Shown: piece by piece, positions 5,879 through 49,781 of the stretch
Layout of the letters: the number at the start of each line of letters is the position of its first letter
How positions within the stretch are numbered: position 1 is the first letter of the stretch
Assembly: GCF_000026545.1 (NCBI RefSeq)
Contig: NC_011601.1
DNA: 64,000 nucleotides
DNA from: Escherichia coli O127:H6 str. E2348/69
GTDB taxonomy: Bacteria > Pseudomonadota > Gammaproteobacteria > Enterobacterales > Enterobacteriaceae
Direction: 5' to 3' (one strand)
The notes under the pieces: model-generated
Seen by the model: only the letters and a program-made list of their open reading frames with translations
Databases searched by the model: none
Told to the model about the DNA's origin: nothing
Position numbers and translations under genes: made by a program

Positions 5879-6804
<926 letters not shown>

Positions 6805-6810
6805 TTTCAC

Positions 6811-6846
6811 TTCACGACACTCCAGCCAATTTTGGGAGGAGTGTCG
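6811..6846 (+). terminator. Possible stem-loop downstream of kdsB (weak intrinsic terminator candidate)
   Basis: Inverted repeat cgacactcc...ggagtgtcg at 6815-6846 directly after the kdsB stop; no strong adjacent T-run. Confidence 0.3.
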
Positions 6847-6957
6847 TACCGTTACGATTTTCCTCAATTTTTCTTTTCAACAATTGATCTCATTCAGGTG
6901 ACATCTTTTATATTGGCGCTCATTATGAAAGCAGTAGCTTTTATGAGGGTAATCTGA

Positions 6958-7851
6958 ATGGAACAGCTGCGTGCCGAATTAAGCCATTTACTGGGCGAAA
7001 AACTCAGTCGTATTGAGTGCGTCAATGAAAAAGCGGATACGGCGTTGTGGGCTTTGTATGACAGCCAGGGAAACCCAATGCCGTTAATGGCAAGAAGCTT
7101 TAGTGCGCCCGGAAAAGCCCGACAACTGGCATGGAAAACCACCATGCTGGCAAGAAGTGGGACTGTCCGTATGCCGACTATTTATGGTGTGATGACGCAT
7201 GAAGAACACCCCGGCCCCGATGTCCTGCTACTGGAGCGAATGCGTGGTGTTTCGGTGGAGGCACCAGCCCGAACACCAGAACGCTGGGAACAACTCAAAG
7301 ATCAAATCGTTGAAGCCTTACTGGCCTGGCACCGTCAGGACAGTCGTGGTTGCGTCGGCGCGGTCGACAATACTCAGGAAAATTTCTGGCCCTCATGGTA
7401 CCGGCAACATGTTGAAGTGCTATGGACCACGCTCAATCAGTTCAATAACACCGGTCTAACGATGCAGGATAAGCGGATCCTGTTTCGCACTCGCGAATGT
7501 CTCCCGGCATTATTTGAAGGCTTTAACGACAATTGTGTACTGATTCACGGTAACTTCTGTTTACGTAGCATGCTGAAAGATTCGCGCAGCGATCAGTTAC
7601 TGGCGATGGTCGGACCGGGACTAATGCTTTGGGCACCGCGAGAATACGAACTGTTCCGACTAATGGATAATTCTCTGGCGGAAGATTTGCTCTGGAGTTA
7701 TCTGCAACGCGCGCCAGTGGCGGAGTCGTTCATCTGGCGGCGTTGGTTGTATGTGTTATGGGATGAAGTTGCGCAACTGGTCAACACCGGACGATTTAGT
7801 CGGCGTAACTTCGATCTGGCATCAAAATCACTCTTGCCGTGGCTCGCCTGA
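6958..7851 (+). CDS. ycbJ: Conserved kinase-like protein YcbJ (297 aa)
   Basis: 297-aa ORF, length and position match YcbJ; 3' end overlaps the convergent elyC by 24 bp. Confidence 0.82.
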   Translation: MEQLRAELSHLLGEKLSRIECVNEKADTALWALYDSQGNPMPLMARSFSAPGKARQLAWKTTMLARSGTVRMPTIYGVMTHEEHPGPDVLLLERMRGVSVEAPARTPERWEQLKDQIVEALLAWHRQDSRGCVGAVDNTQENFWPSWYRQHVEVLWTTLNQFNNTGLTMQDKRILFRTRECLPALFEGFNDNCVLIHGNFCLRSMLKDSRSDQLLAMVGPGLMLWAPREYELFRLMDNSLAEDLLWSYLQRAPVAESFIWRRWLYVLWDEVAQLVNTGRFSRRNFDLASKSLLPWLA

Positions 7852-8607
7852 CGAACCTTTCAGCCACTGCCAGATCCGGCCAAGCGTTTCATAGCCAACG
7901 CGGTCGCTATGCATCAACCAAACCGGAGAAGGGATTGCCCGTTCCCACGGATTAAGCGGCGAGTCGATGGCCAACTGATTCGCCGGGGCTGGTAGCGGAT
8001 TTAACCCTTCCTGCTGAAAAAAGATCATCGCCCGCGGCAGATGTGATGCGGAGGTCACCAGCAGGAAAGGTGCGTCACCAATCGCCTGTTTCACTGCTGC
8101 AGCTTCTTCTTCGGTATCTTTTGGCAAATCCAGGGTGATAATTTGCTCGCGCGGCACGCCCAGCGATTGCGCAACTCTGGCACCTACTTCGGCTGTGCTC
8201 ACCGTATTGGTTTTAGCTACGCCTCCCGTAAAGATCAGTTTTGATCCCGGATTTTCGCGCCATAAGCGAATACCTTCATTCAGGCGTGGCAGACTGTTAT
8301 TGATTAAATTAGAGCTCGGCGCCCACTGCGGGTTCCAAGTATAACCACCTCCGAGCACCACGATATAGTCCACTTTTTGCGAATTATTCCATGTCGGATA
8401 AGTGCTTTCGATGGGACGCAACAGGCGGTCGGCTATCGGTTGCAAACTCAATAACAAGAGCGCCAGCCACCCAATGCTAATAAAAATCTTCCCGGTTTTT
8501 TGAAAACGGCTAAACCACAGCAGCGCCAGGCCAGCGCCAATAATCAACAACATCAGCGGAAGTGGCAGCAACATATTGCCAATCACTTTTTTCAGTGTAA
8601 AAAGCAT
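7828..8607 (-). CDS. elyC: Envelope biogenesis factor ElyC (YcbC), DUF218 membrane protein (259 aa)
   Basis: 259-aa ORF with N-terminal transmembrane segment; conserved position divergent from cmoM. Confidence 0.85.
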   Translation of the reverse strand: MLFTLKKVIGNMLLPLPLMLLIIGAGLALLWFSRFQKTGKIFISIGWLALLLLSLQPIADRLLRPIESTYPTWNNSQKVDYIVVLGGGYTWNPQWAPSSNLINNSLPRLNEGIRLWRENPGSKLIFTGGVAKTNTVSTAEVGARVAQSLGVPREQIITLDLPKDTEEEAAAVKQAIGDAPFLLVTSASHLPRAMIFFQQEGLNPLPAPANQLAIDSPLNPWERAIPSPVWLMHSDRVGYETLGRIWQWLKGSSGEPRQE

Positions 8608-8742
8608 CCTTTCTGGTTCCTTTTTTGACCATATAGCAAGGGATCGCCAGCGATATTACACCAGACGGGTTCATTCTCGCCGTGGCTGTGACAAAATAGC
8701 GTCTTTATCAGAAAACGTCTTAGCCAACCGGTGGAGAAAGCA

Positions 8743-9528
8743 ATGCAGGATCGCAATTTTGATGATATTGCGGAAAAGTTTTCCCGTAACATTTACGGCA
8801 CCACCAAAGGGCAGCTTCGACAGGCTATTCTGTGGCAGGATCTCGATCGCGTGCTGGCGGAAATGGGCCCGCAAAAACTGCGTGTGCTGGATGCTGGCGG
8901 TGGAGAAGGGCAGACCGCAATCAAAATGGCCGAGCGTGGGCATCAGGTCATTTTATGCGATCTTTCTGCGCAGATGATCGACCGCGCAAAACAGGCGGCA
9001 GAAGCAAAAGGTGTGAGCGACAACATGCAATTTATACATTGCGCCGCTCAGGATGTTGCTTCGCATTTGGAAACGCCCGTTGATCTGATATTGTTCCATG
9101 CGGTGCTGGAGTGGGTGGCCGATCCCCGCAGCGTATTGCAGACCCTGTGGTCAGTGTTGCGTCCAGGCGGCGTGTTGTCGTTAATGTTCTACAATGCGCA
9201 TGGTTTGTTGATGCATAACATGGTCGCCGGGAATTTTGATTACGTGCAGGCGGGAATGCCGAAAAAGAAAAAACGGACGCTTTCGCCAGATTATCCACGC
9301 GACCCGGCGCAGGTTTATCTGTGGCTGGAAGAAGCTGGTTGGCAAATTCTGGGTAAGACAGGCGTTCGCGTGTTTCATGATTATCTGCGCGAGAAGCATC
9401 AGCAGCGCGACTGCTATGAAGCATTACTTGAATTAGAAACGCGTTATTGCCGTCAGGAACCGTATATTACCCTGGGGCGTTATATTCATGTCACCGCGCG
9501 CAAACCGCAGAGCAAGGATAAAGTATGA
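8743..9528 (+). CDS. cmoM: SAM-dependent methyltransferase CmoM (formerly SmtA), tRNA mcmo5U methyltransferase (261 aa)
   Basis: ORF-track entry 8731..9528 starts at GTG; ATG at 8743 gives a 261-aa product; SAM-binding motif VLDAGGGEG; stop overlaps mukF start. Confidence 0.85.
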
Positions 9529-28261: not shown

Positions 28262-28453
28262 AAAATGCCGGATGCGACGCTTGACGCGTCTTATCAGGCC
28301 TACAAGTCCGTTGAAAATGCTGGTTTTGTAGGCTGGATAAGGCGTTCACGCCGCATCCGGCAGCCGTGCCCAAATGCCTGATGCGACGCTTGACGCGTCT
28401 TATCAGGCCTACAATCCGTTGAAACTGCTGGTTTTGTGTGCCACATCCGGCAT
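28262..28453. repeat. REP/BIME-type repetitive extragenic palindromic cluster (two tandem copies of a composite unit)
   Basis: Near-identical blocks gatgcgacgcttgacgcgtcttatcaggcctacaa at 28270-28305 and 28379-28414, each followed by ccgttgaaa(a/-)tgctggttttgt; internal inverted REP ggctggataaggcgttcacgccgcatccggcag. Confidence 0.75.
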
Positions 28454-34111: not shown

Positions 34112-34654
34112 ATGCGAATTAAACCAGACGATAACTGGCGTTGGTATTACGATGAAGAGCACGATCGAATGATGCTCGATTTAGCCAATGGTATGCTATT
34201 TCGCTCACGTTTTGCGCGCAAAATGTTGACTCCAGATGCCTTTTCTCCCGCAGGTTTTTGCGTTGATGACGCCGCGCTCTATTTCTCTTTTGAAGAAAAG
34301 TGCCGCGATTTTAAGTTATCTAAAGAACAAAAAGCCGAACTGGTGCTGAATGCACTGGTAGCAATTCGTTATCTCAAACCGCAAATGCCGAAAAGCTGGC
34401 ATTTTGTATCTCATGGTGAAATGTGGATGCCCATGCCGGGCGATGCGGCCTACGTTTGGTTGAGCGACACTCATGAGCAAGTGAATTTACTGGTCGTTGA
34501 ATCTGGCGAGAATGCCGCGCTATGTCTACTGGCACAACCCTGCGTTGTTATTGCGGGTCGCGCGATGCAGTTGGGCGACGCCATTAAAATCATGAACGAC
34601 AGGCTGAAACCGCAGGTTAATGTTGACAGCTTCAGCCTCGAACAGGCAGTCTAA
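34112..34654 (+). CDS. zapC: Cell division protein ZapC (YcbW, 180 aa)
   Basis: ORF-track entry starts at 34076; ATG at 34112 gives [24 protein letters not shown] (180 aa). Confidence 0.85.
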
Positions 34655-49151: not shown

Positions 49152-49781
49152 ATGAAAAGCCTCTCCTATAAGCGGATCTATAAATCACAAGAATACCTGG
49201 CAACGTTGGGCACAATTGAATACCGATCATTGTTTGGTAGTTACAGCCTGACCGTTGACGACACGGTGTTTGCGATGGTTTCTGATGGTGAGTTGTATCT
49301 TCGGGCTTGTGAGCAAAGTGCACAGTACTGTGTAAAACATCCGCCTGTCTGGCTGACATATAAAAAGTGTGGCCGATCCGTTACCCTCAATTACTATCGA
49401 GTTGATGAAAGTCTATGGCGAAATCAACTGAAGCTGGTGCGTCTGTCGAAATATTCTCTCGATGCAGCGCTGAAAGAGAAAAGCACGCGCAATACCCGGG
49501 AAAGACTGAAAGATTTGCCCAATATGTCTTTTCATCTGGAAGCGATTCTCGGGGAGGTGGGGATTAAGGATGTACGGGCGTTACGTATACTTGGGGCAAA
49601 AATGTGTTGGTTGCGACTGCGGCAGCAAAACTGTCTGGTGACAGAAAAGATTCTGTTTATGCTTGAAGGGGCCATTATCGGCATTCATGAAGCTGCGCTC
49701 CCGGTGGCACGCCGCCAGGAGCTTGCAGAATGGGCTGACTCTCTTACGCCAAAACAGGAGTTTCCTGCGGAACTTGAGTAA
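49152..49781 (+). CDS. sxy: Competence regulator Sxy/TfoX (209 aa)
   Basis: 209-aa ORF starting MKSLSYKRIYKSQEYLATLGTIEYRSLFG (TfoX N- and C-domains); 3' end overlaps the convergent yccS. Confidence 0.9.
   Translation: MKSLSYKRIYKSQEYLATLGTIEYRSLFGSYSLTVDDTVFAMVSDGELYLRACEQSAQYCVKHPPVWLTYKKCGRSVTLNYYRVDESLWRNQLKLVRLSKYSLDAALKEKSTRNTRERLKDLPNMSFHLEAILGEVGIKDVRALRILGAKMCWLRLRQQNCLVTEKILFMLEGAIIGIHEAALPVARRQELAEWADSLTPKQEFPAELE

Follow-up and report, generated by a model that had tools for sequence, protein, structure and literature searches.

Overprinting, in which a gene gains a C-terminal extension into its neighbour after loss of a stop codon or of the spacer, is a classical route to overlapping genes. 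Other described systems concern the transcripts of such genes. Excludons are adjacent opposite-strand genes whose overlapping transcripts lead to mutually exclusive expression, with the two genes repressing each other, RNase III processing the transcripts and a long antisense UTR as hallmarks; the pair ycbJ/elyC, the subject of the present analysis, is included in a published E. coli 'excludome' (PMC12288877). In bidirectional termination and programmed head-on collision of RNA polymerase (RNAP), described by the Liu laboratory (10.1101/2022.10.23.513370), a stem-loop is placed between the boundaries of the convergent genes.

The ycbJ/elyC locus shares features with each of these systems. As in overprinting, ElyC gained a new, non-homologous, disordered tail that is antisense to an older YcbJ helix; however, the new segment consists of only 7 residues and the total length of ElyC was kept, suggesting replacement of a tail rather than net extension. 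As in excludons, the transcript 3' ends are complementary; however, the pair is known from its CDS overlap and a survey listing rather than from the excludon hallmarks, and the overlap lies in coding sequences, not only in UTRs. As in the collision system, the two genes converge with essentially no spacer, so that collision-assisted termination is plausible, but the junction has neither a conserved stem-loop nor a hairpin flanked by U- and A-tracts. Further parallels lie nearby, within the window (the whole stretch of 64,000 nucleotides of E. coli O127:H6 E2348/69 that was analysed). sxy/yccS (49744-49781; 38 bp), zapC/ycbX (34651-34654; 4 bp) and yccX/tusE (58353-58356; 4 bp) are likewise convergent pairs of opposite-strand genes that share their 3' ends, with the stop of one gene inside a sense codon of its partner and no intergenic terminator. 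With its 24 bp, the ycbJ/elyC overlap greatly exceeds the frequent 4-bp kind but does not reach the length of that in sxy/yccS.

ycbJ occupies positions 6958..7851 of the + strand and encodes a 297-aa putative phosphotransferase of the YcbJ family with an APH fold, as judged from the ORF list, RefSeq, Pfam and orthologues across Enterobacterales. elyC (also termed ycbC) occupies 7828..8607 of the - strand and encodes a 259-aa envelope biogenesis factor of the DUF218 type, as judged from the ORF list, RefSeq, Pfam and alignment. The RefSeq names are 'YcbJ family phosphotransferase' and 'envelope biogenesis factor ElyC', respectively. YcbJ matched Pfam APH over residues 63-249 with 27.9 bits (curated cut-off 23.2), and ElyC matched Pfam DUF218 over residues 80-231 with 99.3 bits (curated cut-off 27.6); neither matched stretch includes residues encoded by the overlap. 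The Pfam matches, RefSeq annotation and conserved orthologues show that ycbJ and elyC are both genuine protein-coding genes. ycbJ encodes an uncharacterised, putative APH-fold kinase and is located in the msbA-lpxK-kdsB envelope neighbourhood. ElyC regulates enterobacterial common antigen and peptidoglycan precursor flux.

The 24 bp at 7828..7851 encode protein on both strands, in the codon-aligned antisense register. The length of the overlap is divisible by 3, so that third codon positions in either gene lie opposite first positions in its partner, and a clear asymmetric pattern of constraint results. On the + strand the overlap encodes YcbJ residues S291-A297 (SLLPWLA) and the stop, by the codons TCA CTC TTG CCG TGG CTC GCC TGA; on the - strand it encodes ElyC residues S253-E259 (SGEPRQE) and the stop, by TCA GGC GAG CCA CGG CAA GAG TGA. 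The elyC stop TGA (7828..7830, - strand) is the reverse complement of the TCA codon of YcbJ Ser291, and the ycbJ stop TGA (7849..7851, + strand) is the reverse complement of the TCA codon of ElyC Ser253. A back-up in-frame TGA for elyC is present at 7822..7824 on the - strand, opposite the TCA codon of YcbJ Ser289 and two codons past the elyC stop; it was found in E. coli and a few other species only, and most species are without it. Loss of the ycbJ stop in E. coli would extend YcbJ by 47 codons.

The ends of both genes are identical in the RefSeq annotation of E2348/69 NZ_CP059840.2, which contains the window at 100% identity in reverse orientation. The preliminary description of this DNA had claimed a convergent 24-bp overlap at 7828-7851, and the ORF list, the junction sequence and the RefSeq ends all agree with it. 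An annotation or sequencing artefact, in which the true end of one ORF would lie earlier and the overlap would vanish, is extremely improbable and was rejected: the ends are the same in a finished genome and in RefSeq, elyC has no earlier in-frame stop, YcbJ residues L292, P294 and W295 encoded by the overlap are invariant across the order, and the 60-bp junction was found at ≥95% identity in 5424/5426 complete E. coli genomes. No evidence in support of an artefact was found in the ORF list, RefSeq or genome comparisons.

Stops in the codon-aligned antisense frame arise only from TTA, CTA and TCA codons of the host gene, which make up 16 of the 297 codons of ycbJ and 8 of the 259 codons of elyC. 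Because so few host codons produce antisense stops, 7 sense codons before a stop are nothing unusual. CDS overlaps were present in 4 of the 10 annotated convergent pairs within the 64-kb window. What goes beyond chance at ycbJ/elyC is the conservation and persistence of the overlap, not the existence of a short run-in. Within E. coli, the overlap of strain W is identical to that of E2348/69.

To describe the distribution of the overlap, one genome per species was scanned, giving 80 Enterobacteriaceae loci with YcbJ identity of 81-98%. One of these loci had no elyC sequence, and the 80 species scored therefore comprised the E. coli of the window and the other 79 loci. More distant lineages were reached through representatives of 50% clusters and their contigs, and by searching again with a Yersinia-like sequence; this sampling covered 3 Erwiniaceae loci, 2 Yersiniaceae loci and 1 Pectobacteriaceae locus. 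Of the 80 Enterobacteriaceae species, 69 shared an overlap of exactly 24 bp, 5 had one of 21 bp, 2 had one of 36 bp, and 4 had none. It was thus kept in 76/80 Enterobacteriaceae species and in 3/3 Erwiniaceae loci, and is not a strain-specific frameshift. In the two species with a 36-bp overlap, the ycbJ stop had shifted and YcbJ was longer by 4 codons. The overlap was 24 bp in Erwinia billingiae and Erwinia amylovora, and 21 bp in Paramixta manurensis and in a Dryocola/Cedecea-like locus (73% identity). Convergent pairs separated by a gap were found in Serratia (7 bp), Rahnella (8 bp), Dickeya (24 bp), Plesiomonas shigelloides (30 bp) and an unassigned relative with 33% identity (107 bp), and the convergent order of ycbJ and elyC was retained in every gapped lineage. 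Two loci had no elyC beside ycbJ, one from Edwardsiella and one from an unassigned relative (44% identity), and in Yersinia similis elyC had decayed to a remnant. The simplest reading of this distribution is that the convergent arrangement is ancestral and that the overlap is derived, with a single origin in the Enterobacteriaceae-Erwiniaceae lineage and later one-codon shifts of the stops. Separate origins in Erwiniaceae and Enterobacteriaceae may also account for it.

The two protein tails encoded by the overlap differ in age. In an alignment of 28 YcbJ proteins with identity down to 33%, which included lineages without the overlap, L292, P294 and W295 (tail motif LxPW) were invariant. In the AlphaFold2 model of YcbJ (mean pLDDT 80.5), residues 282-296 form the terminal helix with pLDDT of about 90-94. 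The last invariant column of the ElyC alignment was L249; no column after L249/K250, and none in 251-259, was conserved. In the AlphaFold2 model of ElyC (mean pLDDT 86.4), the last helix ends at residue 249, residues 250-259 are coil, and pLDDT is <50 at 256-259. ElyC tails of lineages without the overlap (ADSAGAE, NTATPDA and KH) are mutually unrelated. Among overlap-bearing species the tail residues vary (E/K/Q/D at 255; G/R at 257), and this variation exactly tracks the wobble positions of YcbJ: a CTC, CTT or CTG codon for YcbJ Leu296, for example, goes with E, K or Q, respectively, at residue 255. ElyC length was 257 aa in Serratia, 259 aa in Dickeya and 259 aa in E. coli. Since the YcbJ tail is conserved even without the overlap while the ElyC tail is disordered and non-conserved, the YcbJ tail is the ancestral, dominant partner and the ElyC tail is a newcomer read from the antisense of older YcbJ sequence. 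The ElyC tail shows no sign of a gained function and appears to be largely a passenger. However, the invariant C at 7848 and the restriction of 7839 to C/G suggest that Gly254 and residue 257 of ElyC are not fully free, and the term 'passenger' may understate the role of the tail.

Constraint was quantified as Shannon entropy at degenerate third positions in 74-75 overlap-bearing species. Third-position entropy of ycbJ was 0.59 bits inside the overlap vs 1.27 bits outside, and that of elyC was 0.37 vs 1.37 bits, i.e., variability was reduced by about half and by about 70%, respectively; these values, which come from 8 codons and from species related by phylogeny, are indicative rather than formal tests. 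No other 8-codon window was as low as the overlap in ycbJ (0/283) or in elyC (0/245). Second-position entropy decreased from 0.19 to 0.06 bits inside the overlap. Single sites gave a consistent picture. YcbJ codon 291, whose third base is 7830, was TCA in 72/75 species, and in 72/74 of the cases in which it encoded serine; the 3 exceptions were exactly the species in which the elyC stop lies one codon earlier (TTA/CTA at codon 292). At codon 289, close by, serine was encoded by TCA in just 5/32 cases. Position 7848, the third base of YcbJ codon 297, was C in 75/75 species even though residue 297 varies (A/S/V/T), which points to constraint from ElyC Gly254. The ycbJ stop was TGA in 73/75 species. 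Positions 7830, 7848 and 7850 and both stop codons were nearly or fully invariant across the species compared. Evolutionary constraint on both genes, as had been proposed beforehand, is thus borne out by comparative entropy and site data, but it is asymmetric, with YcbJ dominating. The detectable constraint of ElyC's own consists mainly of the position of its stop, the Gly254 base and the restricted base of residue 257.

The overlap has been lost naturally in some lineages. At four loci of the Citrobacter freundii group (L007, L016, L019 and L031), a REP-like palindromic insert of 35-117 bp immediately follows the stop of ycbJ, so that YcbJ keeps its tail and ElyC ends in WQWLKG(S/A/R)EH followed by a stop. 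The insert motif, CTTATCCGGCCTAC, also occurs in the window, as three copies in alternating orientation at 28290-28412, in the spacer of the convergent pair ssuB/pepN (0.02 matches expected by chance). At the four insert loci, position 7830 was T, A, G and A, and position 7848 was C, A, C and C. This variation fits relaxed constraint after loss of the overlap, although support for it is weak (Fisher p = 0.018 for 7830 and 0.051 for 7848; n = 4 related species). In Escherichia sp. MOD1-EC7003, a change of CGA to CTA at 7852-7854 turns ElyC codon 252 into TAG, and the overlap is lost. The Citrobacter inserts and the MOD1-EC7003 nonsense mutation speak for a dispensable ElyC tail and against a requirement for the CDS overlap itself.

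A consensus pattern scan of both strands revealed no terminator-like site between 7800 and 7900. Rfam gave no match at the junction; within 6500-9000 the only hit was mcrA at 6630-6654, with 15.3 bits vs a gathering threshold of 57.6 (E = 0.86). In E. coli, a 9-bp inverted repeat brackets the overlap (7813-7821, GATCTGGCA; 7868-7876, TGCCAGATC), with an inner 6-bp stem GTGGCT/AGCCAC. When the junction was folded and compared with shuffled sequences, the + strand did no better (z = +0.30) and the - strand did modestly better (z = -2.08); in the - strand fold, a U-run begins about 10 nt beyond a weak stem. Compensatory changes in the inverted repeat were absent in the 75 species, and variable positions broke pairs. 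All 9 outer pairs could form in only 8/75 species, and the first pair of the inner stem in 8/75. A conserved hairpin or terminator across the overlap was therefore rejected, the repeat being neither conserved nor covarying and the pattern scan showing no terminator. A GC-rich hairpin with an A-tract upstream and a U-tract downstream, which would let an intrinsic terminator act on both strands, was absent from the junction, as was a structure conserved among relatives. We judged the repeat to be a by-product of Trp, Leu and Gln codons near both protein ends.

Since the genes leave no DNA between them and a conserved intrinsic terminator is absent, either mRNA must terminate within the partner gene, and simultaneous transcription of the two genes will give complementary 3' ends. 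Mutual antisense transcription at the 3' ends, which the preliminary description had deduced from the coordinates, is accordingly logical if both genes are expressed, and the pair is present in an RNA-seq survey: ycbJ-elyC and sxy-yccS are among 165 convergent 'excludons' detected by ExcludonFinder in at least 50% of 58 MG1655 samples, and all four overlapping pairs of the window appear in the table (PMC12288877). ExcludonFinder scores overlap of transcript boundaries defined by coverage (PMC12288877). Any co-expressed pair with overlapping CDSs will be scored in this way; the listing therefore shows co-expression, not regulation. Termination of convergent E. coli genes by head-on RNAP collision has been documented, and is reported to need a positioning stem-loop (10.1101/2022.10.23.513370). 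ycbJ, elyC, b0919 and b0920 are not mentioned in the TERMITe supplements of Term-seq 3' ends. The gaps of 7-30 bp in relatives leave no room for separate terminators, and overlap of the transcripts is thus probably older than, and independent of, overlap of the CDSs.

These results bear on whether the overlap is selected as a functional excludon, in which complementary 3' ends couple the genes negatively through polymerase collision and/or RNase III cutting of the duplex. Apart from the survey listing, such pairs are more syntenic than other neighbours (PMC12288877), and ycbJ/elyC is syntenic across Enterobacterales; there is no space for an intergenic terminator and none was predicted, and polymerase collision is known from other convergent E. 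coli genes. However, the survey criterion follows trivially from co-expression, which is the opposite of mutual exclusion, and validation of double-stranded RNA with p19 was unsuccessful for convergent pairs in general (PMC12288877). Further, on at least two occasions the CDSs have ceased to overlap with both genes surviving, the RNA structure is not conserved in 75 species, and conservation of the overlap is fully explained by two protein frames and their stops. A literature search gave neither reports of correlated or anticorrelated expression of ycbJ and elyC nor promoter knockouts. Selection for such coupling is therefore unlikely in our view. There is a small chance that the putative kinase YcbJ and ElyC are reciprocally tuned, e.g., at low temperature, where ElyC matters. 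If coupling were real, it would amount to a hard-wired envelope-biogenesis switch between YcbJ and ElyC, for which the chance is likewise small, and the Citrobacter freundii group, with its REP insertion, would have uncoupled that switch in evolution.

The opposite possibility is that the overlap is a neutral accident, persisting because time has been too short or mutation too slow, with the ElyC tail and the stops free to drift. A run-in of 7 codons is within chance for the antisense frame, convergent overlaps are frequent in the window (4/10 pairs), and the residues of the ElyC tail do vary. However, synonymous sites elsewhere in the genes mostly differ between species (mean 1.27-1.37 bits), whereas the stops and positions 7830, 7848 and 7850 are near-invariant, and serine is encoded by TCA in 72/74 cases at codon 291 vs 5/32 at codon 289. 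A longer elyC run-in occurred in none of the lineages examined, and in Citrobacter, where the overlap is gone, variation is seen at 7830 and 7848. Pure drift is therefore very unlikely. We consider it likely that ycbJ/elyC is an ancient tail-to-tail overlap that arose by overprinting and is held by selection on the YcbJ tail and on both stops, the complementarity of the transcripts being incidental.

According to this overprinting scheme, the convergent pair, ancestral in Enterobacterales, would have started with a short spacer. The common ancestor of Enterobacteriaceae and Erwiniaceae would then have lost this spacer together with the original 3' end of elyC, probably through a small deletion that set the elyC frame in register with the end of ycbJ, judging from present-day sequences. 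A small deletion is the most economical origin because ElyC length is about unchanged. elyC would thereafter have been read through the ycbJ stop as TCA (Ser) and along the antisense of the last seven YcbJ codons, until it stopped at the reverse complement of the TCA codon of YcbJ Ser291. The seven-residue ElyC tail would drift only within the freedom left by synonymous sites of YcbJ. The arrangement would be locked by purifying selection on the C-terminal helix of YcbJ (L292/P294/W295), by selection for the ycbJ stop, whose loss would add the 47 extra codons, and by selection holding the position of the elyC stop. Overlap of the transcripts is most likely incidental and tolerated rather than a selected switch, and we infer that termination proceeds via Rho and/or head-on polymerase collision.

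The overlap itself is already known from standard annotation, a 2025 phenotyping study and a published excludon table. The present analysis adds phylogenetic dating, the direction of overprinting, quantified asymmetric constraint and natural reversals; the result is tidy but unsurprising. The overlap has a practical consequence for deletion libraries. Keio deletions retain the last 18 coding nt and the stop, i.e., 21 nt (design per PMC2691949). This is 3 nt short of the 24-bp overlap, so that each Keio deletion should remove the stop of the partner gene: by design, the ycbJ deletion should lose the elyC stop, and the elyC deletion the ycbJ stop. According to the 2025 phenotyping study (10.1101/2025.02.11.637708), ycbJ deletion inactivates elyC. 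When deletion libraries assign a phenotype to the uncharacterised ycbJ, elyC is thus a confounder. For elyC, independent confirmation of the phenotype came from a strain in which elyC is depleted under arabinose control (PMC3879167).

The ycbJ/elyC overlap is a fairly ordinary arrangement and opens no new biological question. On a small scale, the locus illustrates asymmetric dual-coding constraint with textbook clarity: an old conserved helix faces a young disordered tail, and lineages in which the overlap never existed or was lost serve as natural controls.

In Escherichia sp. MOD1-EC7003 (L004, one of the orthologous ycbJ/elyC loci compared), CGA was replaced by CTA at the equivalent of window 7852-7854, creating a TAG stop at ElyC codon 252. 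Read from the sequence, ElyC of this strain would be 251 aa long, with its stop abutting the ycbJ stop and no overlap between the two genes. The elyC gene is decayed or absent beside ycbJ in Yersinia similis (L091), Edwardsiella (L095) and an unassigned relative (L083; YcbJ identity 44%). Only a weak elyC remnant (tblastn E = 1e-6, ElyC residues 3-95) was detected in Y. similis, in a 793-bp stretch without a called gene (L091:3395-4187), and no elyC at all adjoined ycbJ in the Edwardsiella locus or L083.

Insertions were also found at this locus. E. coli strain R9 (L002, NZ_CP107164.1) carries a Mu-like prophage of ~38 kb, with genes that include those for Mor activator and the gp16 family, inserted just upstream of the overlap at the equivalent of window ~7814-7820. 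ycbJ of this strain is annotated as truncated (876 bp), and both elyC and its stop codon are located beyond the prophage. In four loci of the Citrobacter freundii group (C. youngae, C. braakii, C. werkmanii and sp. wls619), 35-117 bp of REP/BIME-like palindromic sequence has been inserted, separating the ycbJ stop from elyC (L007:1364-1480, L016:3895-3929, L019:3895-3987 and L031:3895-3952). Palindrome copy number varies from species to species, and "EH*" stands in place of the ElyC tail in these loci.

Two database labels appeared suspect. A ycbJ/elyC locus in an assembly labelled Chryseobacterium sp. 18061 (Bacteroidota; L058, CACSKA010000002.1) was of Enterobacteriaceae type, with YcbJ identity 84%, and Citrobacter sp. 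18056 (L064) has identical gene tails. The accession of the latter and the way the isolates are named point to a common project for both; the L058 assembly is probably mislabelled or contaminated. The attribution of a YcbJ-family protein (P0362) to the alphaproteobacterium Martelella alba looks similarly suspect.

Consensus matching in the window revealed a terminator-like hairpin at the very end of kdsB (6779-6802) and a 9/12 sigma-70-like promoter match (6898-6926) ~30 bp upstream of the ycbJ start. These matches, consensus matches only, suggest that ycbJ may have its own promoter. The inverted repeat that flanks the overlap, specific to E. coli, has a GATC (Dam) site in each arm (7813-7816 and 7873-7876); this is probably a coincidence.

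Other convergent coding sequences in the window overlap by 38 bp (sxy/yccS, 49744-49781) or 4 bp (zapC/ycbX, 34651-34654; yccX/tusE, 58353-58356), and these three pairs are also present in the table of ExcludonFinder, an RNA-seq survey of E. coli MG1655 (PMC12288877). The 205-bp spacer of the convergent genes ssuB and pepN contains a BIME-type cluster (28290-28412), in which the REP-like motif CTTATC[CA][GA]GCCTAC occurs three times with its orientation alternating; 0.02 occurrences of the motif were expected by chance.

The overlap also bears on the Keio alleles of this pair (b0919/b0920 in K-12). The Keio design retains 18 coding nucleotides plus the stop, i.e., 21 nt (PMC2691949). Because this is shorter than the 24-bp overlap, each deletion (ycbJ or elyC) should, judging from the design, remove the stop codon of the partner gene. 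A phenotyping study stated that deletion of ycbJ inactivates elyC (10.1101/2025.02.11.637708), and the stop-codon loss predicted for the Keio ycbJ deletion is consistent with that statement.
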